Shown: positions 7,901 through 58,010 of the stretch, piece by piece
Layout: each line of letters begins with the position of its first letter
How positions within the stretch are numbered: the first letter of the stretch is position 1
Assembly: GCA_044892525.1 (NCBI GenBank)
Contig: CM097886.1
Coordinates: forward strand, 99,076,001-99,140,000
Length of the DNA: 64,000 nt
Source: Schmidtea polychroa
Lineage: Eukaryota
Direction of reading: 5' to 3'
The notes under the pieces: generated by a model
The model's database searches: none
What the model was told of the DNA's origin: nothing
The model's input: the letters and a program-made list of their open reading frames with translations, nothing else
Made by a program: the position numbers and the translations under genes

Positions 7901-10900
7901 GGGGCCAATTGGAAATCAAGGTCCTTCAGGATATCCAGGCGAACGAGGGGAAACTGGTGAGCCTGGTTCAGTTGGTCCGACTGGTTTGATAGGTAGCATT
8001 GGTGCTCCTGGATCAACTGGAGATCCAGGTTCTGATGGAGAGAGAGGATCCATTGGATCTAGAGTATATATTAATTGTCATGGACTTAAATATCAATTTT
8101 CTGTAAAATCAGGGTCCAACTGGAGATCCTGGTAAAGATGGTCTTGCTGGAATTGATGGAAATTCAGGTGCAAAAGGAGCGGTTGGGCCACGAGGATCTC
8201 CTGGCGCCAGAGGAAACATTGGGTATAGAGGATTTGATGGAATCCCTGGGCCTCCAGGTCCATATGGAGCTAAAGGAGAACAAGGAACAGATGGGGAAAT
8301 TGGCCCAATTGGAGATAAAGGGGGACGAGGAGATACTGGAATGATCGGAGGTCCTGGCCCATCAGGTATTGATATAGTCAATTGTTTTATTATTTGAACA
8401 AAATGCGTTAAAAGCACAATATATTGGTGTGAAAATTTATATTAATTTAAAATATTTTTTAAATTAATAATCCAATTATTAAATTATTAAATAAATTATT
8501 ATAAATTATTAAGCAAATAATTAAATAAATTATTAATACAATAATATATTTTTTCATGATTCGTGTTGCTAACTTTTGAATAATATATTGCTGACAAATA
8601 ATAAGATTTTGCGGTGCATTTCAAAATTTAAATTTAAATTTAAAATATTTTCATTACTATTTATTATTTAAAGGCCCCACTGGATCAAGAGGACCTCCAG
8701 GATCAGTTGGTACAAAAGGAAATATTGGTTTGGATGGTGATTTTGGTCCTATTGGGGATACGGGTGCAAGAGGACGTAATGGAAGACCTGGAGCAACGGG
8801 GCCAGTTGGATTAGCTGGTGCGGCGGGACAAAAAGGTGACAAAGGAGGAATAGGAATAAATGGAAAGCCCGGGGATAAAGGCTTCATGGTACGTACATTT
8901 TTACATTTTTTAGTAATTTATTAATTTATATATTTTATGTATTTATGTATTTATGTATTATATATTCCAAATATTCCAAATTTCTTGATTAATTATTTTT
9001 CATTATTAAAATCAAATTTTTCATTCCTCCTTCCTATTCAATTATTAAAAGCNNNNNNNNNNNNNNNNNNNNNNNNNNNNNNNNNNNNNNNNNNNNNNNN
9101 NNNNNNNNNNNNNNNNNNNNNNNNNNNNNNNNNNNNNNNNNNNNNNNNNNNNNNNNNNNNNNNNNNNNNNNNNNNNNNNNNNNNNNNNNNNNNNNNNNNN
9201 NNNNNNNNNNNNNNNNNNNNNNNNNNNNNNNNNNNNNNNNNNNNNNNNNNNNNNNNNNNNNNNNNNNNNNNNNNNNNNNNNNNNNNNNNNNNNNNNNNNN
9301 NNNNNNNNNNNNNNNNNNNNNNNNNNNNNNNNNNNNNNNNNNNNNNNNNNNNNNNNNNNNNNNNNNNNNNNNNNNNNNNNNNNNNNNNNNNNNNNNNNNN
9401 NNNNNNNNNNNNNNNNNNNNNNNNNNNNNNNNNNNNNNNNNNNNNNNNNNNNNNNNNNNNNNNNNNNNNNNNNNNNNNNNNNNNNNNNNNNNNNNNNNNN
9501 NNNNNNNNNNNNNNNNNNNNNNNNNNNNNNNNNNNNNNNNNNNNNNNNNNNNNNNNNNNNNNNNNNNNNNNNNNNNNNNNNNNNNNNNNNTATTAATAGA
9601 AATTCCTGCTGCCTCGTATACATTTGTTGAAATTAATTGAAATAATCCTTTAAACAAAATTAAATCTTATTTCCTCATTTTACATCAGTTGACTAAGAAG
9701 GCAATTTGATATTTTCAATGATAAAATTCTTATATGGTTTCGTTTATTTCTAATAATATTCTCGATGGAAAATTTTTAATTTTATTTTCTAATTTGCAGG
9801 GACCTCAAGGTCCAAATGGACCAATAGGAAGTCCAGGACTTCCTGGAATTCAAGGTTCCCCGGGAGTTCCTGGTGACATGGGTGAGCATGGACCTACAGG
9901 TTTTAAGGGTCCTGAAGGTGCAAGAGGATCCACTGGAAATCCTGGAGATCAAGGAATGCCCGGTGTACCTGGTGAACTTGGTCCACAAGGAGAAAAGGGC
10001 GATCGTGGTAAAACTGGACCTCCAGGCTCTCCTGGATCTACTGGTCCATTAGGTCCAAATGGCCTTCCTGGAAAAGAAGGACCATCTGGAGTTCAAGGTC
10101 CAATGGGCTTGATGGGTGAAAAGGGAGAAAATGGACCAATGGGCCCTATTGGAGAAATAGGTGTCCCTGGTATTTCTGGCTTGCAAGGCGAACCTGGAAC
10201 AAAAGGTGATGATGGTTCTCCAGGTGAACAAGGGCCTCCGGGAGGTTCTGGACCTCAAGGACCACAAGGACCTAAAGGCGACTTCGTAATAATATAATAT
10301 TTCTAAATCAATTAATAAAATTTCTAGGGTTCAATCGGACCACCTGGGCCCCCGGGTCCCATTGGAGTAAATGGTGCTAAAGGAGTTCAGGGAATAGTGG
10401 GTGAGGATGGGCCAATTGGGTCTCCGGGAAACCCTGGAAGACAAGGAGCTCAAGGTCCCCCTGGAAAATCTGGTGTTGTAGGAAAACCTGGTAAAACCGG
10501 GGCTCAAGGTGAACAAGGAAGTTCGGGTATCAAAGGAGGTAAAGGAGAAAGAGGACAAGCTGGTCCACAAGGCCCATCCGGACCATTAGGACCAATGGGA
10601 CAAATGGGACCTCAGGGCCCTATTGGAAAACCTGGAATTCAAGGATCAATGGTAATAATAATGAAACTTTATAGTTACATTTATCATTCATTGAAAGGGT
10701 AAACAAGGTCCTCTAGGAGAACCAGGTCTTTCTGGACCGCAAGGCGAACAGGTATGTTTATATTATTTATTACTTTATTAATTATCTAAAATAAAATGAC
10801 AAATATTTGCTGTCTATTGTAATCAGCAGTATGTGACAAAATATTTCTATGCATGTGCCCATTATCTATAATTGTCGTATACACACATACACATACACAC

Positions 10901-13900
10901 TCACACCCAATTGTCACAACGTGACTGTACTGTATTTTGACCTAGTTTACTTTCCGCTAACTGGATTTTCATTGGTCGTTTCATTTCTATATAAATATAA
11001 GCTGTCTAATCAATTCTTTATTTATAATCAATTTGGATTTATAAATTTATTGATATTGGATTTACGTTAGACATAAATTTCATTAATTTTCAAATTTCCT
11101 TTAGTAAGATTATTCATTAATTTGTTTAATAATTTTCTAAATGAAATAGATTATTTTCATTAATTATTCAAATGGCTAAAAGAGTAATTTTGATTCCAAT
11201 TGATACTAGCGAGCATAGCAAAAGAGCATTTCGATGGTACTTGAAAAATATGAAACAGGAGAATGATATAGTGCTATTTATTCACGTAGTTGAACCTGTT
11301 TATGCTACTCCAGCAGTTGGAATGATGGAGCCACCTCCAATTGTTTTAGATGACATGTCACGTATGATGGAAGATGCTATTAATGAGGGCAAGAAGTTGG
11401 GCCAGGAATTCATGCATGAAGCGAAAGATACTGGGTTAGAACCCAAAGCTTTTATTCATGTTGACACCAAGCCAGGAGCTGCATTAGTGAAGTCAGCAAA
11501 GGATCATCAAGCTGATGTTATTGTAATAGGTAATCGAGGAGTAGGCACGTTGCGTCGTACATTTTTAGGCAGCGTTAGTGACCATATTCTCCATCATGCA
11601 CACATTCCAGTTGTTGTCGTTCCGCCAGAAGCTAAATAAGCTAATAGAATCAGAAAACTTGCGATTTCTTTTTGATTGTTTTGTCGTAAAATTCGTATTA
11701 AAATAAAAATATTGTTTTGCAATTTACATAAATTTTTTTTTCGACAGCTTTTTATTTCATTGTCAAGGAAATTTTTTTATTTATTGTTTGCTATTGTGTA
11801 ATATTTGAGAAATAAATGAATTATTTGCTTCCTAACTAATGTTTACATCAGTTGAATAGCTCGATTCAAATTTGTTGGCATTATTTAAACACGGATTTAA
11901 ATTAAATATCAAATAAAATAATTTGGAATTTTCTTTTAATTTGTTAATCTAGTAAATGTTTTTATAGAGTTTTCAATAATTTATTTTTATTTCAAGCCTT
12001 TCAGCATATTATTTGTCGAATAATATAATCAGATTAAAAATTGAAATTAAAGCAATTAAGTATTCACAATAGACAATTTAATTACAGAATTTTCATTAAT
12101 TCGGAAATTTTAAATCATTTATCAATAATTGAAACTTAATTTCTACAACTTTAATGTCTATTTGTCAACTAGATTTTAGATGATGGAAATTGGAATTAAC
12201 TATTTTGTTCCGTTTAACCATGTAGGTCAGCGGTGCTTAAATCTTTGGTAGGGAACGCTAAAGGGGTCGAAAAAAATTGGTTTTATCATTTTGAAATATC
12301 TATTAAAAGATATTTTTTAAATTTTGTGTAACTACATTTGTTAAAAATTTTTTGATTTTTTTCAATAAATTTTGCTAGGTGGGGTCGAATAATTTTTTTT
12401 ATTTAAATAGACTCGCAGTTGGAAAAAAAATGCGTATCATTGATGTAGGTAATAAAACTCAGTGTGAGATACAGGATTCTTGGAACTGAAACTGACACCA
12501 GCTAAATTCAAGGAATTAGTACGCTAGGATGTAGCAAAGTATAGATTTGGTATTTTGAGCATAAACTGATTTCAAGGTGCTTAGTAAGTCAAAAACACAA
12601 TTCACTGGACAATATATTTATTTGAATCAATAGAACTACAATTGCATCTTCTGAATTCCCATCACTATTCTATGCTCAAAGGGGTTACCATTACAGACTA
12701 AAATCGAAATTGTTCTATTTGTTCATCACGTATATGACTTGCGAATTATTTAATTCAGTTTTTTGACTTACTCCATTTATTACATTTTTATGCTTCTCTC
12801 GTTTCGCAGCTTCCGAATCGTAGCAATCTCTTTGATGATATTTTACTCAAACTTGAATTATTAGCGCAAATAAATAATAAGTGTCCGACAATTATAAGTT
12901 ATAATATTATTTTTTTAATTGAATGCTGCACTATAAAAATTAAAATTTGGTTACATTTAAATAATAATAACTAATTTAAAATTCAAAAATTTAATTTTTT
13001 TATAAGTTAAAAATATATTTTTATTTGTTTGGAACCTTGGACGTGCGTCCCGGTCATCTATGTTTCTGTCACTTTTTGAAAGCATCTTACCAACAAGTTG
13101 AACTTTAGGGTCTTCACAGATTACCATTAACCCGCCACTTCCTTTCAGCTTGTTGAAGTTGTGGCATTCAGTCTTCATTCTTTACTCTTCTTTCCATAAC
13201 TGACAAAATAAATTTGCATAAATTAATAGTGGATGTAGTATAAAGATAATTAGTAAATTTTATATAATCAATAACGTAACTACAAATTTAAGTCCTTAAG
13301 CTAAATTTATTTTGAAACCTATTGACATCTGAATATTCTGAACGAATGAAATATGTTACGAAAGAATTTGAGCAAGTTTAAATAATTTTAAAAAAATTTA
13401 ATTGTATAAAATACTAAATACAATTAAAACTGTTTTTTTTTAACCAAGAAAATATTACATTTTATAATTATAAAAATATATTTTATAGTTCTCTCTTACT
13501 TTTTCATTCGAAGATTTTGAAATTTTTATCTGAGAAGCTCAAAGCATTGATTTCTTTTGCTAATCCACTGAGTGGGTCCTGTATATGGTTGTAAGAATGA
13601 ACCTAAAGGTATGGGTGGAAATGCATAACTGTGCATAAATCATTGTAATTTCTGAGATTAAGTAACTTAGATCTCTTCAAAATTTCAGAAAATGATTAAT
13701 ATAAAATTTTCAAGTATAAAACTACATGACTCCAGCGAGTATATCAAGTATTGAAATATACAGTTAGAATGGATTCCCCTTTATCAGACACGTTTACCAT
13801 TTTTGACAAAAGCAATTAAATTAACCGTTTCATATGTCTAGTTAAATGTAAAAAAATATTTTTCAGCACGCGTAAAATGTGAAGTATTTTACAGTTGAAA

Positions 13901-16900
13901 ATCTTTTACAATTAATTTTAAAAAGAAATTTATAGGGGCCAACTGGAGATCGAGGTATAAAAGGAGGGGTCGGTATAAGAGGAATGAAAGGCGTTGAAGG
14001 AATAAGAGGTCCACAGGGACCTCAAGGATTAAAAGGTGAACCTGGAAGTTCTGGAAAAGAAGGTCCAATGGGAGAAGATGGTCCGAAAGGAGCTATTGGA
14101 CCAAGAGGACAGCGAGGAGACCCAGGTTTGGCCGGAGAAAGAGGTCCAAACGGACCTCCTGGACCAATAGGCCCAGTTGGACCTTTAGGTTTTTTTTAAA
14201 AAAATCAGATATTTTGTTTAACTAAACGTTCAGGACCAGGTGGACTAAAAGGTGAAAAGGGCGTTAAAGGACCTGATGGAGCTCCTGGCTTACCTGGACC
14301 GGTAAAAATTGTTGATATGCAAGAAGGAAGCTCTAAATATGTAAATACTGGCACCAGATTTAAGCGTGAAGCCAAAACCGAGGATAACAAAGAAAAAATT
14401 GGTAATATTTATTATTCAGTCTGATATTTACTAAATAAAATTTTCCAAGCAAGAAAAAAATATTCATAAATTCTCTGAGCAAATAGTTTGTAAAATTTCC
14501 CAATTTTCAATTATCCAATTTATTAAGTTCTAATCTTACTGATTCTGTTGATATCAAGGCATTACTATGCTTGCATCATGAAGGTAGCTTATAATGATGT
14601 TATATCTAGGACATGAAGAAATTTTCCAAATGCCTTACTTTTTTCTCTTCAATTCTTCCATTTTTTGTTGCTTGATATCTACAAAAAGTATAAAAATAAA
14701 TTCTTATTTTCGTATACCAATGACAATATTCACAAAGGCCTGGATCCGTGTAACAATTACAACTGAAGTGCTAATAGAGCTCCATTGAAATTTGATTTGC
14801 TGACCAAATGGACTTTAACATTTTCAGACTTCATCGGGTCAACCATTTGAAATCAGTGTTACGTAATCTCTTAGAGAGAAAATATTCATAAAACGTCTAG
14901 GGTTCAAGTTTGGCATAGTTCTGCACCACAGACTTATTGATTATTTTTATATCTTTCTGTGAAATTTCAATGCAGTTTTCATTGGTTGGTTGAGTTATTG
15001 TTATGATGTGCAAGACGTATCAAAAAGATCTTGCTACTATAAACACAATGCACAAGTAAGTAACATTTGTCAAGTGTGAAACATTTCAAAGTTTAATTAT
15101 ATTCAAATCACTTATTAGTGAACTAATCAAAGGAACATTTTGAGATCTTAATTGATTATGTCAGCATTTAAACAAAATACGTAAGAAATAAATATCAGAT
15201 GGTATAATGTTCAGAACTTGAGGTCGAGGAGTGAGGACGGAGGGAGGAGGAGTGTTGACAAAAGAACCATTGAAAAAGGTGTTTTTTATCTGTCATTTTA
15301 AGGGTGAATTTAAAAATATCTGTTTAATTTAATGTCTGATGCGTTTCTAAAAGAGCTCTTCTTCTTTGTCTTTGCATACTCAATCAGAACTAGTGAGTGT
15401 TTGACTGGAAAAGAATATTTTTTTACTATAACATTTTTCAATTTTCACCACTGATTTCTTTTCAATTGACATTGTATTTATATTTAGAAAGAAAAATAAG
15501 CTAACTCAAAAATTGACACCTTCACAAAATGATATTTAAATTCCTACCAAATTAAATATGGTAAAACAAAAAATTAAAGAAAGCAGGCTGATTAAATGTT
15601 ATTACACACGCGTTAGTAATTATGTTAAACCTGCAGACAATTTTTTACATATTATATTCATATTAGATAAATGCACAAATATTGTTCCCAGGCCCGGTTC
15701 CAGTCATTTGGCGGCCCTAGACAGCTATATGTTGGCTACTCTATCCATATATGATATATCAATGTCACCATGTCAGTGACTTGGAGGAAAACTTATTTTC
15801 GTTTTTCAGCAACAGAATCTTTTTTAGTTCCTTTTAACGCTGACATCGATAAATCAAATTTTAATTTTAATTATTCATTAAAAATAAAGAAATTTGAAAA
15901 TGATCTAGATTAAAATGAACACAATGTTGATATATACTTTCGTAAAACGAATGATTAAAAATTATATATCGAATAAAGTGAAAAATAATTAAAAATATTT
16001 ATTAAACGACGTTGTTACATAATTTATTTTAATTTCAAAAAATATTTTTAATGTTTATTTAAATCATTTTGCAAATTTGGCGGCCCTAGGCAGGTGCCTA
16101 GTTTGCCTAACGGAAGAACCGGGCCTGTGTTCCTCATGTAATGTTAAATTGTAGGTAAAGCAAACCCACTATGCTTAATAAAATTCAATGGCGTAGTTTG
16201 TATTTTGCGTTGATTTGTCTATTGTAAAATTACTTCAGACAGGTGATTAATTTAAATAGCCTCAATTATCCTAATTTGTTGAGAGAAAGCATTAATATTA
16301 CATTACGGTCAAAAATGACGGCACCATCCTTCCAGGTATATATATTTCCCCATTCTTTTAATGTTAATCAACATATGCCCCCCATGTGACATCTTTGAAA
16401 TTCCTGAATCATTTTATAATACACTTATTTTTACAAATTTATAAATTTTAATTCCTTTGAACACTTTTGAACATTTGATCTTTTTAAACAAAAAATATTG
16501 CTTTTCTTTTTATGAGAATTAACACAAAATCCCATCCGAACAAATTTGATTAAATTTTTAAACAAAAGGTGAAAGGTCATTCGCGAAATGAAGGTTGACC
16601 CCAATTGCTTCATTTTGCAAATAAAAAAAGAAATTATAGAAAAAATTCTTTACATGGGAGAAATTTCGACGGGCATCATTTGTGTTCCGCTTGTTTTACT
16701 AGTCTCATTTCATACATTTTTAATAATTATACTACTTTCAATTTGTTTTGTTTTAATAAATATTAAAATGTTGTTTCAGAAAATCCAGAAATCCCAAAAG
16801 ACACCAACGGAATTATCAACATCCTAAAGAGATTATATTCAAACATTGATAAATTGGAGAAAAATATGGTTTCTATACAGAGACCCATCGGTAGTAAATC

Positions 16901-22788: not shown

Positions 22789-23742
22789 TTATATCAAGAT
22801 TTCAACATTGGGGGAGTCTGTAGGAACAGTTTCATATATGTTAATATCATGTAATTCCTTTGGAAGTTTAATAGAATTATTTTGAGGAGTCTTCCAGTCG
22901 ATTTCATCAGCAAACCAGGGATGAGTTTTAAGAGTTTGCTCCTTCCCCATGATACAACCTAGGCGTTTCGTGGGATCAACTGCCAGAAGTCTCTTAACTA
23001 AATCCCGAAGCTCATCAGAGAAATGAGGAGGAAATTGAAATTTGCCGGAAATTATTTTTTTCACTAGGTTCAGTTGAAATTCCATTTTGAATGGTGAATA
23101 GCCGGCACCTAATTCATATAGTAGAACGCCGAAAGCCCACCAATCCACAGCTAAACCATGACCTTGATTAAGGAGAATTTCTGGTGCCATGTATTCCAAT
23201 GTTCCTTGGCACGTGTAGGATCGACCTGTAATTCTTTTGGAAAAACTAAAATCTGTCAACTTTATCATCCAACTGGAACTTATCATTGTATTTTCCGGTT
23301 TCAAATCTCTATAAGCTATTTCTTTCGAATGAAGATATTCCAAACCTAGGAGTATCTGAAAACTGAAAAATCTGACTGATGATTCTCCTAAATAAATATT
23401 TTTCTTGAGCACATTAAAAACTGTCGTCGGGAGGTATTCGAGTAGAATATTGAATGTGCAATTCGACTCAAATGAACCGTAGTACTTGATCAGAAATTCG
23501 TTTGATATCGAGGAAAGAATTTCGACTTCATAGCTTACCTTTGATGCTAGATTCAATTCATCGAATTGGGTCTTTGATATTTCTTTAATGGCCACAAAGT
23601 CTGGAGCATCATCTGGTTTGTTATTCATCCATTCAGCCATGAATACCTTTGAGAATGCTCCTTCACCTATTTCTTTAATTATATAGAAATCTGTGAGACT
23701 CAAATCGTTTGATAATTCTTGTTGATCATCTTCAGACGTCAT
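22789..23742 (-). CDS. Intronless, divergent AGC-group (PKA catalytic subunit-like) Ser/Thr kinase
   Basis: GEGAFSKV, VAIK, alphaC Glu (YEVEIL), YRDLKPEN, DFS in place of DFG, YTCQGTLEYMAPE, GHGLAVDWWAFGVLLYE and HPWF. First ATG at 23742. Confidence 0.9.
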   Translation of the reverse strand: MTSEDDQQELSNDLSLTDFYIIKEIGEGAFSKVFMAEWMNNKPDDAPDFVAIKEISKTQFDELNLASKVSYEVEILSSISNEFLIKYYGSFESNCTFNILLEYLPTTVFNVLKKNIYLGESSVRFFSFQILLGLEYLHSKEIAYRDLKPENTMISSSWMIKLTDFSFSKRITGRSYTCQGTLEYMAPEILLNQGHGLAVDWWAFGVLLYELGAGYSPFKMEFQLNLVKKIISGKFQFPPHFSDELRDLVKRLLAVDPTKRLGCIMGKEQTLKTHPWFADEIDWKTPQNNSIKLPKELHDINIYETVPTDSPNVEILI

Positions 23743-24773: not shown

Positions 24774-25766
24774 TGTTGAGGTTTGAAAATAAATTATTAA
24801 ATTATATAGTTCAGATTAAAAGGAAAGCCGAAATTGAATGGCGGTCAAGCGGAGAAGCAATGGCAAAGAAAGATATGATAAAAACAGAACTATAAAAGGG
24901 TACAATCAGACATGAAATGGGAAAATGCGCAAACCGGAGGAAGTGGAATAAAGTGAAAAGTTATCGAAATTGAAGCTGGAAAACGGGAGAGGGGTAGATT
25001 AAGGGATGGTGAAGAAGACAGTGAGTAAGAAATTGTTAGAAAATGTGTGGAAAGGGTAGTAAAACAGACAAATGTGGAAAAACGTAAAATATTAATTAAT
25101 TAATTAATTGGCTAATGGGAAACCCGAGCTAATGGGAAGCCCGAGCCAATGGAGAACCCGAGCGATGAAGAAAACCCGAGCACGGCAATTTGGAAGGGTA
25201 AACAAACGAGGAATTCAGAGGGCAATTATCCAAACAACCGGATAAACGAGGGTAACAAAAGACGGGGAATTACGAAGAGGGTCAACAAAAATAGTCAATT
25301 AGGGAATGATAGCGGAAGAAGTCAAAACCAATTAGGTCACAAACGGGCCAATTACAACGATTATGGGAGTATATAAGGAAACTCAAAATTCACATAATCG
25401 GCGATAGCCTTAGGTAGGGATACGAAGAAACAGACGATAGGAGTTCGAGGAATAAAATAAAAGGAAAAAGGAATTATAAGAGGAATTTAGGAGTCAGAAA
25501 GGAATATTAAAAGAGTTCGGATCAGAGAGCGGAATCAAACAAAAGGTGAAACCTATTTTTTTTTAAATCGTACAAGGCCGAGACCTTCCAGAGCGGAGTT
25601 CGAGCTGAAATTGTGTAAGAATTGTGATTAACCAACAGTGTGATTAATTGTTGAGAGTTGTGAATTGTTATAAAACAAATATACGTTGGGAGTTTGTGTT
25701 TATTGATTTTGGAACACGTGGAGTCAGAGTAACCAACGGTTGATTTTGGTATCATAAAACCCAACA
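24774..25766 (+). repeat. 5' LTR (993 bp)
   Basis: TG...CA termini. Four ~17-bp tandem AATGG(G)AAACCCGAGC-like repeats near 25116-25182, a TATA-like GTATATAAG near 25369 and AATAAA near 25452. Duplicated at 33036. Confidence 0.95.
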
Positions 25767-25773
25767 TATATTT

Positions 25774-25791
25774 TGGTGAGCCCGACGTGAT
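25774..25791 (+). promoter_or_regulatory. Primer-binding site complementary to the tRNA-Trp 3' end
   Basis: TGGTGAGCCCGACGTGAT differs at one base from the complement of the conserved eukaryotic tRNA-Trp 3' end (ATCACGTCGGGGTCACCA). It lies 7 nt after the LTR. Confidence 0.85.
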
Positions 25792-25952
25792 TAAACGTTG
25801 GTGGGCGAATATTGAAGGGTGAAAGAGGTGAAGAAAATTAAAGTAATAAGAAAATTGAAAATAATTGGAAATTGGAAGAGGTAGTAATTATTGATTATTA
25901 ATTTTAATATTTAGCCGTGAGTGAATACAATTTGAAGAACCGAAAAGTAAAG

Positions 25953-28043
25953 ATGGCCAGAGAGAACGCTGAGATGATAGATTTTGCCAGTTGTCAAAAA
26001 TTACCGGTGAATCAGTATGGAGGAGACCCGGTTGATTTTGCCGATTTCATGGGCGATTATTATATGTACGCTTCGGCCTATGGGTGGTCACAAGCCATAA
26101 TGGTAGAAAGATTCCCACTCTATTTAAAAGGAGCCGCAAGAGAAGCTTGGCAGCAAGTGGATAAAAAGACAATTGGAAATGATTGGGCCAAACTCAAGGA
26201 TGCGATGGCAATGAAATTGGTGGGAGGCGACATAAAAAGAATAATGCGCCAAAAATTTTATGCCAGAGTACAAAATCCAAATGAATCGGTAAGTGAATTT
26301 GCATACAATTTAACGACTTTAGCAGACAAGGCCTTCGAAGCAAAACCTGAACAAGTGGAGATGGTGAAACAAGTCAAAGAATTGCTAGAAGATCAATTTA
26401 TAACTGGAGCCCATCCTCAAATAAAAAAAGCACTATGCTACGTGGATTTTTCGAATTTCGATGAACTCGTGAAGAAAGCAATGAAAATTGAATTGAATTT
26501 AAAAAGTACCAGAAAATCTGAAGTATTTGCCGCAAATATTGAGAAAGAAGAAAGGTCGATAACTCCAGTAAAGAATCAATGGGAATCAAACGAACCAATC
26601 CAACCAAACAGGTCTCCAAGATTAGGTAATAAATTGGAAGTTAATAAAGCAACTTTTAGCAATCAAATAAACGAGATATCGAATAATATTGTATGCGAGT
26701 TTTGCAAGAAGCCTGGACATTATTCAAATCAATGTTGGTTCAGAAATGGTAGAAATAGGAGTCCTAAAGGAAAAAGTACTGAAAATAAGCCAAACAATGG
26801 TGACATTGAATGTTATCGATGTGGAAAAATGGGCCACATTAGCAGAAATTGTTTTTCAAGAACTATATCACCTTCTAGATATCCCAAGAAATCAAGTAAA
26901 TTTCAAGGTGAATCAATCAATGCCAATGTAGCTTATGCTCAAAAAGACGACTTTAAAGAAAAGATGGAAAATGAAGTTCGAGAAATGAGAAAAAAATTAG
27001 ACAAGTTGATGTCGAAAATTGAATTTGATGATGAAGCAGACTCTTATATGGCGTACGAAAATATTTCGGAAAACTTTGCTAATAAAGTAAAAAATGACTT
27101 GTTGAACGAAAAGGCTACGTTGTTATTAAATAAAATGGAAAGATGGCTCGAAAATATGGAAACAAACAATCCAAGATTGAAAGAGTGGGTTACAGAGTTA
27201 AGTCAGATCCAACTTAGTCATAAGAAATTGAAAAGTGCATTGAACTTATGTTCTAAGCTTTACAGCATACTCCAAGATGAGGAAATTGCTAAATTAATGA
27301 GAACATTTGGAAAAGCATTAAGATCCAAAAACGATTTGGATAATATTATCGTGGAGACCACAGACATCAATGGTATTAAAGCTCAATTTTCTATCAATCC
27401 TTATGGACAAATCAAAGATTTGACAATGCTTATTCTGGCTAAATACAATAAAGGCAGCGTGAAATTGACACAACGGCAAATGGGACAACTGAGGGATGAG
27501 GAATACTTGGTAGATTGTGGTTTAATCCCTGGATTAAAAAATGAGGTAAATATTTTGGATACTTTTAATCATTCAAATTCAGATTTTAAAAATTGGAACG
27601 AAACTTTAGGGAATTTGCGAGAAATGTTATATATCGGAGATGAGGACGAGATCAATAAATGTCTTGAATTAGTGATGAGTTCAAAAATGAATGGAAAAGA
27701 TAAAGAGAAGTTGTTCGAATGTATTTTGCCGCATATTCATAAAGAAACGAAATATCAAACCAGATTAAAGGAAACTCTACGGAAATTAAAATATGATTAC
27801 AGAGAACCGGAGTGTAATAAGAAATCATTAATGATAGCTCAAAATATTGATGGAAAAGTTGAATACTTTCAAGAGCACTGGAGTGTAAAGGTGTCAAAAT
27901 TACGACAAAAAGCTGCAGAAACAATGGGAAATAATGGAATTATTAACGAAAATCTAGTTAATTACGGATTTAATCCAAATGACATAAATAATGTTTATGC
28001 AACGAAGTCAAAGGATGCATGTCTGAAAACGAGGTTATTGTAA
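25953..28043 (+). CDS. Gag-like polyprotein: capsid region, two CCHC zinc knuckles, long C-terminal extension with a probable ubiquitin-like domain
   Basis: FADFMGDYYMYASAYGWS...FPLYLKGAAREAW is typical of gypsy gag. Knuckles CEFCKKPGHYSNQC (26694-26735) and CYRCGKMGHISRNC (26811-26852). UBL-like segment at 27342-27554. Confidence 0.88.
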   Translation: MARENAEMIDFASCQKLPVNQYGGDPVDFADFMGDYYMYASAYGWSQAIMVERFPLYLKGAAREAWQQVDKKTIGNDWAKLKDAMAMKLVGGDIKRIMRQKFYARVQNPNESVSEFAYNLTTLADKAFEAKPEQVEMVKQVKELLEDQFITGAHPQIKKALCYVDFSNFDELVKKAMKIELNLKSTRKSEVFAANIEKEERSITPVKNQWESNEPIQPNRSPRLGNKLEVNKATFSNQINEISNNIVCEFCKKPGHYSNQCWFRNGRNRSPKGKSTENKPNNGDIECYRCGKMGHISRNCFSRTISPSRYPKKSSKFQGESINANVAYAQKDDFKEKMENEVREMRKKLDKLMSKIEFDDEADSYMAYENISENFANKVKNDLLNEKATLLLNKMERWLENMETNNPRLKEWVTELSQIQLSHKKLKSALNLCSKLYSILQDEEIAKLMRTFGKALRSKNDLDNIIVETTDINGIKAQFSINPYGQIKDLTMLILAKYNKGSVKLTQRQMGQLRDEEYLVDCGLIPGLKNEVNILDTFNHSNSDFKNWNETLGNLREMLYIGDEDEINKCLELVMSSKMNGKDKEKLFECILPHIHKETKYQTRLKETLRKLKYDYREPECNKKSLMIAQNIDGKVEYFQEHWSVKVSKLRQKAAETMGNNGIINENLVNYGFNPNDINNVYATKSKDACLKTRLL

Positions 28044-28882
28044 CTCACTGGCCTAGAATCGTAAAAGAGGAAGATGATGAGATTGGAGCAATTAAAACTG
28101 AATTATCTGAGGAGCTAAATGAAGCTGAGTTGAAAGGTTTTGAGTCAAAAAACAAAATTTTACATGAAGTGCGAAATGGAAATGTAACTGATGTCAATGA
28201 AACTGATGCAGCAAGTCAAGAAATTTATAATATGAATGACAAGCCGATAAAAACGGAAGAATTAAAATGCGAATTGAAGTTTGTTGAAATTGGTAATACT
28301 GATAAATCAAATAACCGTAAGCGGAAAAAGTGTGAGTTAACAGAAAAAGACGATTTAAGCGATGTAAAAACAGATTTAAATGATTTTATTGAAACAAAAG
28401 TGATTTTAAAAAGGTTGGTAATGGAAATATATGCACTAAATGAAGAGAATGTATATGAAAATGAATTTATGCAACAACTTGCGAAACAGCTGAAAAGGAG
28501 ATTTCCAATCATACTTCAACATAGCGTTAAAAGAAATGTATTTTGTGATGAAACAGTAATCAAGAAGGTAATTAATAAGGGTTTGAACAGAGATGTAGTA
28601 TTGACGGTTCTAGCTTGTATTGTCTTGGAAATTGGCACACATGGTTGTTTGGAATCGGAAAAATTGGAAAAGTGGATCGAAAAAGCCACAAAAGTGGCAA
28701 ATACATATGTGACAAACTGGATAAAATATAATGGTGGATGGAAAAATTTGGTACTAAAACCGAGGAATTCAAAAAGGGTGTATGAGTTAAAAAAAGGCAA
28801 AAATGATATATACATGGTTGACGATGTTTGTTTTTGTAATTTTAGGAATCATCAACAATACAACGTTATTGGTAGTATATGA
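28019..28882 (+). CDS. LTR-element ORF2: acidic N-terminus plus a Bcl-2-like domain
   Basis: BH2-like YVTNWIKYNGGWKNL, degenerate BH1-like VINKGLNRDVVLTVLAC and BH3-like FMQQLAKQLKRRF, in Bcl-2 order and spacing. Confidence 0.62.
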   Translation: MSENEVIVTHWPRIVKEEDDEIGAIKTELSEELNEAELKGFESKNKILHEVRNGNVTDVNETDAASQEIYNMNDKPIKTEELKCELKFVEIGNTDKSNNRKRKKCELTEKDDLSDVKTDLNDFIETKVILKRLVMEIYALNEENVYENEFMQQLAKQLKRRFPIILQHSVKRNVFCDETVIKKVINKGLNRDVVLTVLACIVLEIGTHGCLESEKLEKWIEKATKVANTYVTNWIKYNGGWKNLVLKPRNSKRVYELKKGKNDIYMVDDVCFCNFRNHQQYNVIGSI

Positions 28883-29852
28883 TTATTCTCAAATTAAAAA
28901 GAAAATTCCTAGAAATGTAAAAATTTATAAAAAATATAAAATTGTGAGTACTGATCTGAAAGACAACGAGAGGAAAAATTTCAAAGATTGGGAAAATGAA
29001 ACAAAAAAGGACACGAAACTTCAACAAATATTTACCAAAAATAAAACTTTAAACAGCTATAGTAATAAAGTGTTAATTACAACAAAACAAATAGAGAATA
29101 ATAACTTACGAGAGCCATTCACACCGAATTATGACAAAAATACTTACGTGGCACGAGAGCTAAAGGCAAATTTTAAGCCCCCTTGGAAGAATGAGCAAAA
29201 TGAGACATACACTCCTGGAAAATTCAACAATCAAATTATAGTTAAAGTAAAAACAAATGAATTATATAACAATGAGAAAGTAATAGAAAATAAATGGTCA
29301 TTGTTTAAAGTTGACAGCCAGGTAAACCATTGGAAAAACGAGTCAAATCGAGTAGTTTTTACAGTTCAAAATAAATTAGCGATAGCATATCAAAATTCGG
29401 AAATCGACAAAAGAAGCATTATCAGTAGTGGACAAAAAATTATCGTTTTGTTGGATGCCGGTAAAAGCTATTTTTCATTTATTACTCCTAATTTAGAATA
29501 TAATTACCTGATAAAAATTAAATACCAACAACGGATATTCGAGCCATATCGATGGCAAACAGTTTTAGAGAAAACAAGAATAGTGCCAAAGCCGAAACCC
29601 GACATAACCACCACACGTCCAATTTCTACAAGTCAATATCAATGTAACAATCGTGTAATAAATAAACGGACTCAAATTGAGATTCGTCCAACTTTAATCA
29701 TCTGTGAATGTTTGATATACCTCATACTGACAGCATTCCTCATACTATCGCTTAGGTTAAGAGTAATAACAATCATTTTGTGTGGAAATAGACAGCATAC
29801 TATAGATGACTTACGACTTGAATCTTTCAATGTGATCAAAACCACTGTATAA
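28803..29852 (+). CDS. LTR-element ORF3: predicted membrane protein of unknown function
   Basis: 349-codon ORF with hydrophobic segments at both ends (YTWLTMFVFVILGII; LIICECLIYLILTAFLILSL) and a beta-strand-like central region. Confidence 0.6.
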   Translation: MIYTWLTMFVFVILGIINNTTLLVVYDYSQIKKKIPRNVKIYKKYKIVSTDLKDNERKNFKDWENETKKDTKLQQIFTKNKTLNSYSNKVLITTKQIENNNLREPFTPNYDKNTYVARELKANFKPPWKNEQNETYTPGKFNNQIIVKVKTNELYNNEKVIENKWSLFKVDSQVNHWKNESNRVVFTVQNKLAIAYQNSEIDKRSIISSGQKIIVLLDAGKSYFSFITPNLEYNYLIKIKYQQRIFEPYRWQTVLEKTRIVPKPKPDITTTRPISTSQYQCNNRVINKRTQIEIRPTLIICECLIYLILTAFLILSLRLRVITIILCGNRQHTIDDLRLESFNVIKTTV

Positions 29853-30012
29853 AAACTATTATAAAATTACATGCGTGTAAACAAATTTTATAAAATTAGC
29901 ATGGTTATATGAATGTAGATGTGTTACTTTGTTTGGTCGGACTTCGCTATGGTATGCTTGGCCTTGCGCGATAAAGAGTGTTTAAAAAAACTTTAATTAT
30001 ATTTAACTTCAG

Positions 30013-30258
30013 GAAGCCCAAGAGGAAGAGTCAATCAAAGAGTGTCGAAACTCAATGAAAGAAATGAGAAGAAAAATGAAAGCAATGGAGAGGAAAATTG
30101 ACGACTTGGAACTAGAGGATATGATTTGCAAAAGAAAGCTGGAAAGGATGGAAATTCTCCTGTTCCAATACGAAGCGGAAGTCGTGTTGCTAAGAATGCA
30201 GATACAGGGAAATGAATGCCCGACCGATGAGGAAGGAGAGATGGATGAGTTAGAATAA
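30013..30258 (+). CDS. LTR-element ORF4: acidic coiled-coil peptide, probably a spliced exon
   Basis: Acceptor-like TTTAACTTCAG ends at 30012. It is followed in frame by EAQEEESIKECRNSMKEMRRKMKAMERKIDDLELED, which has a heptad pattern. Confidence 0.5.
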   Translation, partial: EAQEEESIKECRNSMKEMRRKMKAMERKIDDLELEDMICKRKLERMEILLFQYEAEVVLLRMQIQGNECPTDEEGEMDELE

Positions 30259-31329
30259 TTTAATGATTAATAAAATTTACAATTTAAACCTCACTTTTCG
30301 TCCTCGAAGTAGTAAAAGAGAAGGGCTAAACGATAATAACATTTACATTAATAAAACGAAATTTTAAAAGGGAATAAATGAATAGAACAAAATAGTCAAT
30401 AAACAAAATTTATTGATAAGTTAGTCCTCTAGCAGGACAAAACTCTCGATGTGGGAGTCGTCCACTACACCCCGAGGAGGTCTTTTTTCGAACCTTTTGA
30501 ACCTGTGGGACAAGTCCACACAGGCAAAAGTACGTTTTAGACCCGAGCGAGGTGGCGCGGGTACAGGAAACCTAAGTAAATCCTACAGTAATTTTAATCA
30601 AATAGAAACGAAACTAACCACATGAGGGGATCATATTTTACTAATGAGTCCTAAATTAAAGAATAAAATTAAATCAAGCAAAAAAAAAAAAAAATTAATT
30701 CCGACATAAAACAAAAGTAAAGTGACAAACAGCATAAGTGAAAAGGCTAAAGCTGTGAGGAAAATTTATATTTATAAATAACTGGCAAATAAAAACCAAC
30801 ATAAAATCTGTCGCTGTACTCATCATCGACCGTCGATATCCGGAGAAATGTTACCATAGCAAACACGCTCTATAATTAATAATGCATAATTGATAGCTTT
30901 CAATCATTAAGATACACTCAACATTTAGATAGGAAGCTAGTTATATTGGAAAATCGAATTCCTATTACAAGGAAGATGAAAGAGAAATATTTAATAATGA
31001 AATGGAAAAATATTTTTTTAATATTTTTTTTGAATAATTATTAGAATGTAATTTTTCACATAAATAATTTTAAAAGTTTAATAATATTTTTTAATATTTT
31101 TTTTGAATAATTATTAGAATGTAATTTTCACATAAATAATTTTAAAAGTTTAATAATTTTCTATTAACTGTCTTAAAATTGCTCATTTGAAATCCAAACG
31201 ATATTGGGCATGAATACATATTGCGGTAACGACACAAGCTACTCCAAGAAAAAGCATAATAATAAAATAATAAAATGTAAAATAATAATTTGTAGTTACA
31301 TTTAACAAAAAAAAAATTTTTTTTTCCAT

Positions 31330-31830
31330 TACAGCAAGTCACAAACTTGATACAGAACTTCTGTTTCCATTCTTCAGCTGTTTTCTGCTGTAATCGACCA
31401 TAACTATCTTCAAGTCAACGAGCTCTTGAAACTTGTAGTTCAAGTTCTTTTTCATTGGAAATGGATATCAAATTTTTGGGTATGATTTCGTAAAACCCTT
31501 CGAGAAAACTATGAAGTTGTTGGTGAATAGCTCCAATCATTTTCTCTTGACGAACTGATTTAACATATTCAGATTTATTTTCCTCTGTGAGAAGTACTAG
31601 AGAGTTTCTGTCGGTCCAAATTCTGATATTTGAATAGAAAACGTTTGATAGAGAGGCATTGCCAAAACATCCTTTTCTATAGGAATTCCAAATCAGGGAA
31701 AAACTGATAGTATTCTTTTTCTAGATCAGTATATCAAATAGAGATGCCGAGTATATGTTTGTAGAATGCACGAATCATCATCCGGAATTATAGTGCGCTT
31801 GTAACGATCTGTAGAGAAATATTGTCGATT
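31330..31830 (-). pseudogene. HUWE1: Decayed HECT E3 ligase fragment (HUWE1-like) carried antisense inside the LTR element
   Basis: Minus-strand translation gives RAFYKHILGISI*YTDLE, then after frameshifts [21 protein letters not shown], then [57 protein letters not shown] (31597-31427). These are collinear with the HUWE1 HECT N-lobe. Confidence 0.85.
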
Positions 31831-33022
31831 GCCTAACATGTTCAATAAAATTTTGTGCGTTGATTAGAATTAGCGAGAAGAAATGTTCCGTCTTTGGAAT
31901 TTGTTGTTATAATAATCTGTGATGATATATTGAATTTAATATCAAAATGATGATAAAACATTTTTAAAATTATTCGATCTTTTAATCTAAAATGTATTAA
32001 CCCTTTCCTCTCCTCATTATTTTCTGCGCCCTGCATATTTCAATACCAATTTACATACACAGGATAGAAAAGGATTAACGATATATTTTCAATTATGAAT
32101 TTAAACAAATTAATTAAAAAATTTCAAGAAACATATGATCCTCTACTGTGACATTAATTACTCTAAATTCATCAAATTTTTATGACTTCTATATCTTTTA
32201 AAAAAAAAAGAAAAAAAATCAACGAAAATTCAAATACGAACACACCTAACTGAAAATAAATAAATAAAATTCAAATAGCAAATCATCCTTGCCCTTTAAC
32301 GTAGTTGATGAAAATAACAAATAATGTCGATGGAGTTTTGTTGTGATGGAATAAATAAAATTCAATTAGCAAATTGCCAGACAAATCCGAATGAGATTTT
32401 GGGTATTAGTACAGTTTATATATGATATTTCTCTGCCAGCAGTAATTGCACAGCACTTCAGCACCAGCCGATCAGAATTGATAAGTCGTGCAGACACGCC
32501 TATATCGTAGATTGTTTGGTATATTTGTGTATTTGGGTTAATGTGAGTTTGGAATCACTATTTGTGCAACCACTACACAAATCAATGTTTATCATATTGG
32601 TTCCGGTGGACGGTTGGAGTGGGTCGTTTGAAAATTAGCTCCTATCTCGGAACAAACAAACTGTGATAAATTTTAACCTCCTTTAACTCGATTCGAATGT
32701 TGATCGATGGAATATTTTAAATTGAACTGCAATGATAAAACTGATATATGGTTAATCTAAATCATTAAACATTATGCATGTTAAATTAAAGACGAATTTT
32801 AATAAAATTAATAATAGTCTAATAAAGTCTAATAAAATTAATAATAGTCTCAAAATTTTAAATATCTATCAATTAAAAAAAAATAATCTCAAAATTTTAA
32901 TATTCTAAATATTTTATGACTCTCCAATCAAATGAAATTAAAATAATAATAATAATAATATATGTGAATTTTAACTGAAATTACATTCTCGAATAAGCAT
33001 ATTTCGAGGACGAAATTTTTTT

Positions 33023-33033
33023 AAGGGGGGAGA
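33023..33033 (+). promoter_or_regulatory. Polypurine tract
   Basis: AAGGGGGGAGA, 2 nt before the 3' LTR. Confidence 0.85.
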
Positions 33034-33035
33034 TA

Positions 33036-34028
33036 TGTTGAGGTTTGAAAATAAATTATTAAATTATATAGTTCAGATTAAAAGGAAAGCCGAAATTGAA
33101 TGGCGGTCAAGCGGAGAAGCAATGGCAAAGAAAGATATGATAAAAACAGAACTATAAAAGGGTACAATCAGACATGAAATGGGAAAATGCGCAAACCGGA
33201 GGAAGTGGAATAAAGTGAAAAGTTATCGAAATTGAAGCTGGAAAACGGGAGAGGGGTAGATTAAGGGATGGTGAAGAAGACAGTGAGTAAGAAATTGTTA
33301 GAAAATGTGTGGAAAGGGTAGTAAAACAGACAAATGTGGAAAAACGTAAAATATTAATTAATTAATTAATTGGCTAATGGGAAACCCGAGCTAATGGGAA
33401 GCCCGAGCCAATGGAGAACCCGAGCGATGAAGAAAACCCGAGCACGGCAATTTGGAAGGGTAAACAAACGAGGAATTCAGAGGGCAATTATCCAAACAAC
33501 CGGATAAACGAGGGTAACAAAAGACGGGGAATTACGAAGAGGGTCAACAAAAATAGTCAATTAGGGAATGATAGCGGAAGAAGTCAAAACCAATTAGGTC
33601 ACAAACGGGCCAATTACAACGATTATGGGAGTATATAAGGAAACTCAAAATTCACATAATCGGCGATAGCCTTAGGTAGGGATACGAAGAAACAGACGAT
33701 AGGAGTTCGAGGAATAAAATAAAAGGAAAAAGGAATTATAAGAGGAATTTAGGAGTCAGAAAGGAATATTAAAAGAGTTCGGATCAGAGAGCGGAATCAA
33801 ACAAAAGGTGAAACCTATTTTTTTTTAAATCGTACAAGGCCGAGACCTTCCAGAGCGGAGTTCGAGCTGAAATTGTGTAAGAATTGTGATTAACCAACAG
33901 TGTGATTAATTGTTGAGAGTTGTGAATTGTTATAAAACAAATATACGTTGGGAGTTTGTGTTTATTGATTTTGGAACACGTGGAGTCAGAGTAACCAACG
34001 GTTGATTTTGGTATCATAAAACCCAACA
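33036..34028 (+). repeat. 3' LTR (993 bp)
   Basis: Same length as the 5' LTR with no differences noticed; the internal ORFs 25149-25376 and 33411-33638 translate identically. Followed by the ATTT TSD. Confidence 0.95.
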
Positions 34029-36014: not shown

Positions 36015-38734
36015 CAGGGCCGTACCTGGGTATATGGCCGCCTGCGTGCTAGTATGCATGGCCGCCCTTTGAGATAACATCAAAATCAAAGAAAAAAATC
36101 AAATTTTCATTCTTAATGTTTATTATTATACTTATATATCTAATGTACATGTACATATTACCATTGAATATAAAACATTAATATGTTTTGGCACATATAT
36201 AAATCTATGATATTACAATCAAAAATTTACTCTACGTGATTTTTTAGAGGCAAATTCTTCAATTGCCCCTTCAATATTTAAGGAATCAGCAATTTCACTT
36301 TCAATTGCAATAATTGATATATTACTGAGACGTTCTTGAGTCATTGAAGTTCTCAGGTGGTTTTTGATTATTTTTAATTTTGAAAAACTTCACTCTCCAG
36401 ATGCAACAGATACTGGAACTGTCAGTAAAAGTTTTAAACTTCTGGCGACATTTGGAAAAGAAGTCTCCAAGTTGTATTTGTATAAAAACTTTATGAGTTC
36501 TTCGGGCTGCTTTCTGTTTTTTATGATAATTTTTAGAGAAATTAACTCTTGATATAATTCTACGCCACTGATATCGCAAGATTCATCATCTTTAAATTTA
36601 TTATGAAGATCAAAACAACTTTTTTTTTATTTCCTCATGTTCCATATCGATAAATTTGTATAGAAATCCAAAACATTGTTCGAAATTTGACAAAGTTTCA
36701 AAACGGGTGGTAAGAGATGAAATAGCTGAATCTAGTATTACATAGAAAAAATTAATTTGAAAATGTTCTTCTGGAGTAAATTGAATATCTTCATCTCCTT
36801 CATAGCTAAATTGTTTTCGGTGATGTCGGCGACGTACACTAATTTCAGCAGGAAAATCCGGTTCTGTTTCAAGTGCTTTACAAAGTTCATTAGAAATCTG
36901 CAAATAATTTTCGAAACTTTAGTTATTTCTAATGCTTTTGAAAAATTTCTAAAATTCCTTAATTGATTCAGCACACGAACTGATATTCCAAGAAACTTTC
37001 TGCATCATTTTGCTAATAAAATCTACCTTTTCAAAGATTTCGTACCATATTATTATTGAAGAAATAAATTTATAAGATTTAAGTTTCATTGCAAAACATT
37101 CAGCTTCATGTTGAACTGTTGGCATTGAAGATTCCTCAGCTATTTCTATAAGGCTGTCATAAATTTCACTTAATTCATTTCGCAGTGGTCTAATCGCTTT
37201 AATTCTTGCTTCCCATCGAGTTTCACTAACTTGTTTCAATGTTAAAGATTTTACATTTTTCTTTAAAACTTGCCATCTAAATGGTGATTCACTGAAAAAG
37301 TTGTATATTGCAGATACATTACTGAAAAAATCCACCGTTGAAAACGAAACTTTAGCTGCATCATTAATGGCCAAATTTAATGTATGCGCGTTGTATGGCA
37401 TAAACAGAACTCGTGGATAATTGTCCAAAATTCGTTTTTCCAATCATTTATGTTTTCGGGACATATTAGACCCATCATCGTATCCCTGGCCCCTCATATC
37501 GTTAATATTTAAATCAAGATAGTTTAACTTTTGAATTAAGAAGTCGTAAAAAGATTCCCCAGTACATTTTTCAGCTTGATAAAAGCCAATGAAATTTTCT
37601 CTTACTTCAACTTCATAATTTTTAATATGTGCATACCTAATAATCATTGTAATTTGCTCGACATGTCCAGTGTCCGACGTACAGTCCAAAATGACTGAAA
37701 AATATTTTATTGATGTTAATATATATTTTTGAATTTGGGTTGCAAGGATAGTGATTATTTCATTTTGAAAGCGATTTCCCAGGTAATGTGGCATGTGGTT
37801 CTTTAAAGCGATTGGTTCTTGTACGCGTTTTATGTGGTCTGCCATTATATCATCAAATTTTCCTATCATTTCAATTGCTTTCAGAAAATTTCCATTATTT
37901 TTTTCGTACAATTTGCTGGAAGAACCTTTAAAAGCTAAACACTGTCCTGCTAGAAATTGTACCACAGATATCATGCACCTGACAATTTGACACCATCGTT
38001 TTTTCTCGGCGTCATAATACCGTTGCATATTCTTATCAATTGTAGTTTTTCTTTTTAAATTTAATTCCAATTTTTTCCAACGGGTGCAATTTTCGATGTG
38101 CAGCGATGTTTTTTCGTGACGAGATAAGTTGTCAGATATGTGTTGCCAATCGTTGAAGCCTTCATTAACTAATTTTATTTCTTGTTTGCCAAATAATTTA
38201 CAACAGAAGCAAAATGTGGCATCATTTTTTGGAGAATAGATTAACCACTCACGATTAAATTTTTCACCATTTGGCAGTTTTCTATAGAAATAAACCTTTG
38301 AAAATGATCTTCCAAATTCATTTAGTGGATATGTAGATTGTATATTTTGAATAGGGCCTTTTTCAATTAAAATATCCAGCATTTTATTGGTAAGTGTTAA
38401 AGGCCAGCAAGCTGGATCATTTAGTTCTATACACAGCAAAATATTCTAAATCAATTTCAGTGATATCGTCGATATTTGTAACTGCAATATCTCCTATTTC
38501 ATCATTACTATTAATATTATCATTATCATTTGTATTTTCGTCAGATAATTCATTTTCATTGGAAAAAAATTCACTGCTTAGATTTGCTTGGCTACTGCAA
38601 GCATTTTGCATTTCTGGAGGTTTTTCCAAATATTTGGTTAGTGAACCAAAGATTTTTTTAGCAACATGTTGTTTTTCTTCTCGCTTTCTTTTATATTGTG
38701 CTCCAGACAATCTTTTCGTTTTTCTCCCAGTCAT
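36015..38734 (-). mobile_element. Inactivated hAT transposon (ZMYM1-like / DUF4371 transposase with hATC dimerisation domain)
   Basis: Starts MTGRKTKRLSGAQYKRK at 38734. Motifs WLIYSPKNDATFCFCCKLF, FSVILDCTSDTGHVEQ, RGQGYDDGSNM, SETRWEAR and FPNVARSLKLLLTVPVSVASGE*SFSKLKIIKN, ending at 36219. Frameshifts near 38430 and 36960, stops at 37444 and in hATC, and CxxH changed to YxxH. TIR-like CAGGGCCGTAC at 36015. Confidence 0.9.
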
Positions 38735-56848: not shown

Positions 56849-57140
56849 TTATAGACAGGTAGTGTTATGATGATAAGGGCTAGAAAATTGTAGCTGTATA
56901 TTGTGATTCTTAGCCAACTCTTTTATCAAGTTAGACTCAAATGTTTTTCCACAATCAACATGAATAATTCTCGGTGCACCGTATTTTAATATCCAGAATT
57001 TCACAATAATATTCGCTGTAGTTTTTTCGTCCTGCTTTGCTACTGCTGTCAACGAAATGTATCGACTACACATATCTATAATTCCCAAAATATATTTCTT
57101 TCCATGAATGTTTGCCTGCAAAGGTCCACAAAAATCTGAT
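56849..57140 (-). mobile_element. Gypsy integrase core fragment
   Basis: DFCGPL...GKKYILGIIDMCSRY...YGAPRIIHVDCGKTFES...SSPYHH. Confidence 0.85.
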
Positions 57141-58010
57141 GATCTCAGACAATGGCACAAATTTCATAGGCGCCACTTCTACAGTAAAGAATTTTGTAAT
57201 CGACAACTATAAAACTCAAAGAGAGTTGTCGAAGCATCAATGTAGTTGGATCTTCAATCCTCCATCAGCACCGCATTTTGGGGGAGTTTTTGAGTCCATG
57301 ATCAAATCGGCAAAGCGAGCTATGAATGCCATACTGACAAGTGCAGATGTGACCGACGAAGAATTGGGAAATGTTTTGACAAGGGCTGAAATGTTGATAA
57401 ATTCTCGGCCCTTAGTGGTTCAGGCAGTAGACAGTAAGGAAGACGCTGTGCTAACTCCAAATCATTTATTAATTGCCGGTTGGAAAGGAGAAGCTGTGGA
57501 AAATATAGAAGTGAAGAAAATGTCATGTACGATGTTTCGGTGGAGACGAGTTCAGGACTTAACCGAGCACTTCTGGCGGCGATGGATGAAAGAATTGGTC
57601 CCGTGCTGGTGGCAAAGGGCGAAATGGAATAAGATAGAAGATGATGTCAAGACAGGGTCAACAGTGTGGGTTTTAGACAAAAGGAATGAGTATGGGAAGT
57701 GGCCAATGGGGAGAGTAATCGAAGTGATACCGGGAGAAGACGGAAAGCTACGCGTGATGAGGATAAAATGTGAAGGAAAGGAGGTATTAAGATGCATATC
57801 TAAATTATGCTTGATCACAAAAGAAGGAGAAGTTAATGGGGATGTGAGATTGACACCAAAGTGTCAAGGGGGGAGGATGTTTAATTCGATGTTGGCTGTG
57901 GGCGCACACAGACGCATATAGTTGTGGGTGTTGTTTGGCTTTTTGTGTTCGCGTCTGTGTGCGCGGTCTGGTTAGACCGATTCTGGTGGGTGTGCGCACA
58001 CAGACGCGAG
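57139..58010 (+). mobile_element. BEL/Pao 3' fragment: integrase C-terminal part, DUF5641-like tail, PPT and the start of a 3' LTR
   Basis: ISDNGTNF, FNPPSAPHFGGVFESMIKSAK, INSRPL, LTPNHLL, HFWRRWMKE and WPMGRVIEVIPGEDG. CAAGGGGGGAGGA is followed by TGTT at 57878. Confidence 0.88.

Follow-up and report, generated by a model that had tools for sequence, protein, structure and literature searches.

Within the 64,000-nucleotide stretch of Schmidtea polychroa DNA analyzed here (the window), an LTR element carries a piece of the host gene HUWE1 that is probably a neutral passenger, a fragment of one exon that would have entered the 3′ non-coding region of the element family likely once and probably as a small DNA circle. 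In the mechanism we propose, a 687-base circle would have formed at a 2-base overlap and opened once at insertion. Subsequently, co-packaged element RNAs would undergo template switching at short common words, which would reshuffle and trim the 3′ region, with the HUWE1 piece riding along and gathering stops, deletions and substitutions without codon bias.

The 57-codon stretch at 31427–31597 (minus strand) matches the Pfam HECT domain with E = 4.6e-11, and its best match among solved structures is human HUWE1 with 62.8 bits, compared to 41 for NEDD4. The first-pass annotation, made from the sequence alone, had recognized a HUWE1-type HECT fragment with about two-thirds identity over these codons and one exact 11-residue run; counted from the alignment, 38 of 57 residues are identical to human HUWE1 and the 11-residue run is exact, but the last three residues of the stretch stem from a separate host block (block B in Table 1). 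The donor is the HUWE1 orthologue of the host on G000:C3, which scores 451 bits against human HUWE1. Because HUWE1 is the best match and the HUWE1 locus was the only one of the 30 host HECT loci compared that matched the fragment, another HECT gene as donor is ruled out. No separate HUWE1 pseudogene that could have acted as a go-between was present among the genome matches listed to the fragment and to 1.8 kb of the host exon.

The insert spans window positions 31339–31773, less than the 31330–31830 initially assigned to it, and is antisense to the element and bracketed by its LTRs, as had been described. Compared with the host gene, 399 of 437 aligned bases agree, corresponding to an ungapped identity of 91.3%. 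The CGA-to-TGA change, the further stops and the frameshifts noted from the letters are all present, with three stop-making changes in total, a 1-base deletion and a 22-base deletion. The absence of introns, previously taken to suggest capture from mRNA, is uninformative in this respect because the donor segment sits inside one exon; the swapped order of the blocks and the introns kept in sister cargo (see below) also speak against that suggestion. The donor segment lies within a 681-codon open frame of the host, and in two runs presumed to be RNA, spliced contigs cross it gap-free, the nearest splice site being 84 bases past the fragment end. Among the records listed as containing the fragment, none was RNA. 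Contigs from four presumed RNA runs include one 289-base piece over the fragment at about 91%, and as contigs show neither strand nor level, this is evidence neither for nor against its expression.

Table 1. Features of the carrier element and its cargo, in window positions
Feature	Positions	Strand	Remarks
5′ LTR	24774–25766	+	TG...CA; target duplication ATTT directly before
Primer-binding site	25774–25791	+	read from sequence; we take it to be tRNA-Trp-like
Gag frame	25953–28043	+	Retrotrans_gag, two CCHC knuckles
Frame with divergent Bcl-2-like domain	28019–28882	+	weak Pfam Bcl-2 match
Third frame	28803–29852	+	remnant of the far part of the polyprotein
Hypervariable non-coding 3′ cargo region	30410–33022	+	mosaic, subfamily-specific, with host pieces
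HUWE1 block B	31339–31437	-	runs from C3:122405132 to 122405034 of the host, where it lies upstream of block A; after block A here
HUWE1 block A	31436–31773	-	HECT N-lobe/hinge codons, from G000:C3:122404804 to 122404444 of the host; with the CGA-to-TGA stop and deletions of 1 and 22 bases
Further cargo piece	31891–32001		matches non-element locus G000:C1:172747457-172747717 at 90%
Further cargo piece	32083–32213		matches the same locus at 82%
Polypurine tract	33023–33033	+	read from sequence
3′ LTR	33036–34028	+	target duplication ATTT directly after

The insert does not consist of collinear pieces, as was first thought, but of two host blocks in swapped order. At the inner junction, host position 122405132 is joined to 122404444 with a 2-base overlap. 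An old copy at C1:206.43 Mb, whose LTR is 89% alike to that of the window, has the same junction and a block B prolonged to 122404806, and the end of block A at 122404804 is common to the window and to another old copy at C3:69.89 Mb. Using 1.8 kb of the host exon as query (40 of 83 candidates scored, the additional candidates shown being intron repeats), we found HUWE1 pieces at at least 22 element loci, indicating that the piece is not limited to the window copy. Among the scored candidates (40 of 83, and 25 of 25 in an earlier search with the fragment), no piece extended outside C3:122404444-122405132 and none ran across host position 122404805. Together, the pieces tile a 687-base host segment as a ring opened once, with one base unaccounted for. 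If both ends were free, they would come to lie within 1 base of each other in about 3 of 687 cases; the end at 122404806 is known from a single old copy.

A permuted order is a mark of a circular DNA intermediate, and the pieces display the expected arrangement, with the donor ends joined and the ring opened at one inner point (122404804/122404806). From this arrangement we infer that the simplest reading of the permutation is a small DNA circle inserted into an element; reinsertion of circular DNA has reportedly occurred at KIT in cattle and at vasa in tilapia. An assembly artefact is ruled out by the recurrence of the junction at at least 20 loci and in contigs of run X2. As there is no GT donor at the junction, ordinary back-splicing into a circular RNA does not account for it, even though AG precedes block B in the host. 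The permuted joint was absent among the joints listed for runs X1 and X7, which stand beside 19 further ones outside the list and come from contigs that give neither strand nor level. At L051:8444-9132, the ring comprises 229 codons with the junction in frame, such that the HECT frame reads across it, which would happen by chance in 1 of 3 cases. Microsimilarity at the switch points amounts to the 2 bases at the inner junction and a 9-base word at the left border of the window insert, common to the element flank and the host and likely a mark of later trimming. The first, empty insertion site was not found among the copies compared, the flanks of which are reshuffled.

The carrier is a 9,255-base element at window positions 24774–34028 with 0 mismatches between its LTRs over 993 bases and a 4-base target duplication. 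In the window copy, frame breaks isolate the Bcl-2-like frame on both sides, from Gag as well as from the frame that follows; among 43 close copies, 12 have the Bcl-2-like region within one frame of at least 1250 codons. The assignment to Bcl-2 is weak, with a Pfam score of 16.7 bits (cut-off 31.4), a profile E of 0.02 and structure models of low confidence (pLDDT 45.2 and 48.5), and the Foldseek rows listed for the latter model all belong to the Bcl-2 family, with E values of 0.02 or worse. The frame has at least 137 matches in the host genome. A Pfam search of the frames of the window copy found no protease, reverse transcriptase (RT), integrase or envelope domain. Longer relatives of about 15–16.5 kb have the LTR and the 3′ region in common with the window element and encode, in a single long frame, Gag, the Bcl-2-like region, a Monjiviricetes-type fusion glycoprotein, protease, RT, RNase H and integrase, in this order.

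By this frame order and by the single polyprotein of the longer relatives, the window element appears to belong to a Burro-like Gypsy family, the layout of which is already published, both for the planarian Gypsy-like elements Burro/GYPSM1 (PMC6431247) and for the GAG-ENV-POL errantiviruses of Platyhelminthes (PMC13524379), which share the whole series of domains from Gag to integrase with the longer relatives. Burro is reported to measure 30 kb, more than the longer relatives found here, and the available portions of the Burro and errantivirus descriptions (PMC6431247, PMC13524379) do not mention a 3′ cargo region that varies and contains host pieces, as in the present family. Judged by its domain content, the window copy is a non-autonomous form, 9.3 kb long, from which the env and pol domains are deleted; the longer relatives would mobilise it owing to their common LTR and 3′ region. 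Short relatives lacking env and pol and long relatives (L128-L133) are only about 52% identical in the Bcl-2-like frame, yet they have near-identical LTRs and exchange the same cargo blocks, a pattern that points to recombination of co-packaged RNAs. At L128:447-3909, three LTR copies of different ages are arranged head to tail ahead of a long relative.

To compare the 3′ regions, we took 60 close copies, 59 by rank of their match to the Bcl-2-like frame and one known carrier, of which 17 were dropped and 43 had the whole 3′ region. These 43 copies are alike before about position 30410 and beyond about 33000, with many classes in between. The HUWE1 piece is not a constant part of the family, as it is present in 8 of the 43 copies and missing from 35. 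An innexin piece, in sense orientation and with upstream DNA, occurs in 17 copies (96% identity to the donor), part of the gene at C2:166.55 Mb in 11 (antisense, 96%) and a foxC-like piece that starts at the last bases of an intron in 10 (antisense, 94%); 13 copies have none of the four. Three of the four identified gene pieces are antisense, too few to judge a bias (P 0.63).

The commonest cargo is the 5′ part of the innexin gene plus upstream DNA, found in sense orientation at about 37 loci (e.g. L058:1930-2690; donor L218:4418-5287, G000:C1:176.976 Mb), in a host genome with 122 innexin matches. The foxC-like cargo reaches 1.9 kb and comprises the second exon and downstream DNA in antisense, at 93–96% identity (L076:590-4266, L126; donor L200:4996-6957, G000:C2:162.475 Mb). 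The cargo from the C2:166.55 Mb gene (L076, L104; donor G000:C2:166550734-166552096) derives from a multi-exon gene without a Pfam match, and its longest versions contain an exon together with its two splice sites and some 0.95 kb of intron, the exon limits being deduced from frames and GT/AG. Among the observations made, this arrangement speaks most strongly for capture in the form of DNA or unspliced RNA. Another common cargo piece, L058:2808-3014, was traced only to other element copies and to loci of no assigned kind. A Pfam scan of 140 listed stop-free stretches of cargo (tool count 150 proteins; 180 of 756 passed the filters) yielded no matches other than HECT, forkhead and nested transposon domains and did not pick up the innexin piece, so that the cargo list is a minimum. 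A 677-base stretch upstream of the foxC-like gene (L200:450-1126) matches an insert in the L115 cargo at 100% identity and is probably a small mobile element.

The pattern of change in the HUWE1 piece resembles neutral decay. Relative to the host, the window fragment has 10, 15 and 13 changes at codon positions 1, 2 and 3, and of the 119 distinct changes counted across the copies, 38 are synonymous, against 26–29% expected (P 0.15–0.48); since this share is as in neutral decay, the piece is not coding cargo. Retention for pairing would predict less variation in the piece than around it, but divergence among carriers is 3.2% in the HUWE1 piece and 1.5–2.8% in the flanks, values pooled over related copies that are not independent. 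The length of HUWE1 sequence held varies from 437 bases at 8 loci through 403 plus 33 displaced bases at 6, 316 at one and 184 at 5, and the two old copies have 509 and 229. By LTR identity, carriers are no younger than non-carriers, with medians of 99.74% in 14 carriers and 99.75% in 32 non-carriers (P 0.63). Selection for silencing is not supported, given the neutral decay, the shrinking of the piece and the lack of any gain in the youth or number of carriers, and from these features we infer that the piece has no selected function. The piece has drifted 8–9% from the host and occurs in young copies among short as well as long relatives, and the part kept in the five shortest versions, of 184 bases, is the best-matching one, at 95.7% identity to the host; survival through such drift, together with the choice of the part kept, could also reflect retention by selection. 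Seven of the differences of the window fragment from the host are shared with one old copy (2 at third positions) and 9 with the other (5 at third positions), and few differences appear to be host-side changes.

As to the route of capture, the same insert could have arisen from RNA, either because reverse transcriptase made two jumps on one huwe1 transcript (pre-mRNA, antisense RNA or, during plus-strand synthesis, mRNA) or because it copied a circular RNA, a scenario that is also compatible with neutrality and to which we assign a minor, though not negligible, probability. Multi-switch capture with microsimilarity has been described for LTR elements (PMC5131818), the circle contains whole codons with its junction in frame, and an AG stands before block B in the host, but the other end has no GT donor, the antisense orientation and the exact abutting demand extra steps, and sister cargo with an intron and both splice sites fits only DNA or unspliced RNA. 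We therefore regard a DNA circle as the likely route, clearly ahead of RNA.

With respect to possible effects, the nucleotide identity is not too low for small-RNA targeting, which the earlier annotation had named as a point to check. The fragment has 42 exact 21-mers in common with the host, the longest exact run is 36 bases, and 132 of the 398 windows of 32 bases mismatch the host at 2 positions or fewer. For Drosophila, an identity of about 90% is reported to be enough for silencing and 79–82% not (PMC13534243). Pairing with huwe1 mRNA thus appears physically possible. Orientation imposes a restriction, because RNAs antisense to the element have the same sense as huwe1 mRNA and cannot pair with it; only element-sense RNAs could do so, and huwe1-derived RNAs could equally hit the element. 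Incidental cross-talk following neutral capture, in which element RNA or element-sense small RNAs slightly lower huwe1 mRNA, or in which sense small RNAs from huwe1 target carrier RNAs and impose a mild burden that leads to trimming of the piece, is unlikely in either direction or both together. It would agree with the identity and with the stepwise loss of the piece among copies, but planarian transposon piRNAs are described as mostly antisense to the transposon (PMC8532177), the orientation that cannot pair here, and little of the difference looks host-side.

The first-pass annotation raised, as a speculation, that transcripts of the element yield silencing RNA against HUWE1, the ligase that degrades Mcl-1, given the antisense piece beside a Bcl-2-like frame. 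Selected silencing of this kind, be it to protect the Bcl-2-like protein or to drive stem-cell division, is the least probable reading of those considered. Identity would suffice, knockdown of huwe1 in a planarian is reported to give stem-cell hyper-proliferation (PMC8583885), which could favour an element, and Drosophila telomeric elements are described as acting in this way against piRNA genes (PMC13534243, PMC7785250). On the other side, the great majority of complete copies possess the Bcl-2-like domain without the HUWE1 piece, innexin cargo is twice as common, there is neither excess conservation nor an age difference, and the orientation is opposite to that of TART/nxf2, in which element-antisense piRNAs are the active ones (PMC7785250). 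The Mcl-1-binding BH3 motif of HUWE1 is reported, in the available part of the source, only from vertebrates (PMC7184716), and one host HUWE1 exon tried for the motif gave no match to solved structures. A functional tie between HUWE1/Mcl-1 and the Bcl-2-like domain is consequently not supported, and the HUWE1 piece is not evidence for an anti-apoptosis module. Also very improbable is a wider model in which the 3′ region of enveloped LTR elements traps host DNA, including reinserted circles, and turns it into trans-acting small RNAs, such that the HUWE1 piece would dampen the ligase and the element would gain through stem-cell over-proliferation.

A neutral passenger derived from a DNA circle has partial parallels in known systems. 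TART-A with nxf2 and Drosophila telomeric elements with pieces of piwi and aub likewise carry a short non-coding host piece of about 90% identity in an untranslated region (PMC7785250, PMC13534243). According to the available descriptions, those systems involve piRNA-gene targets, repeated capture, carriers at higher copy number and active piRNAs antisense to the element (PMC7785250, PMC13534243), whereas here, known from sequence alone, the genes are unrelated, carriers are a minority, LTR ages are equal and the orientation is opposite. LTR-mediated retroposition, as in maize Bs1, similarly places partial pieces of several host genes between LTRs, with short common words at junctions and re-copying as non-autonomous elements (PMC5131818). 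It is described as copying spliced mRNA (PMC5131818), unlike the present cargo, which includes introns, is mostly antisense and, in the case of HUWE1, is circularly permuted; the collinearity with a transcript that marks an mRNA retrocopy is lacking here, as the blocks are swapped. Pack-MULE and Pack-TIR elements resemble the present case in capture at the DNA level with one to a few bases of microhomology (PMC8277862), and reinserted circular DNA in the DNA-level route via a circle (PMC9527254), but here the carrier is an LTR retroelement that multiplies the piece through RNA.

Neither the type of element nor gene capture in itself is new, and the novelty lies in the permuted insert and the cargo region; no published report of HUWE1 capture was found in the open-access literature. 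The family provides a clean, dated example of an animal LTR family sampling host DNA, with a likely fossil of a circular intermediate spread over many loci beside intron-bearing pieces. It extends the range of capture by LTR elements in animals to routes other than spliced mRNA, and it may offer a clue to how the many host-like domains of Burro-like elements were acquired.

The window contains several further features. By eye, an intronless 350-codon frame at 57–1109 resembles alpha-galactosidase/NAGA, a multi-exon collagen gene extends over 5575–14300, and a frame similar to universal stress proteins lies between collagen exons on the same strand (11172–11639). An intronless, PKA-like protein kinase frame (Pfam Pkinase) is located at 22789–23742. 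The stretches at 36949–38734, 57139–57921 and 58685–61351 contain pieces of hAT-like transposase, the integrase end of a BEL/Pao element (DUF5641) and another Gypsy element, which is broken. The frame at 58051–58719 is near-identical to L198:3077-3814 inside a gene region at C2:166.54 Mb and, given this counterpart, is likely part of another repeat.
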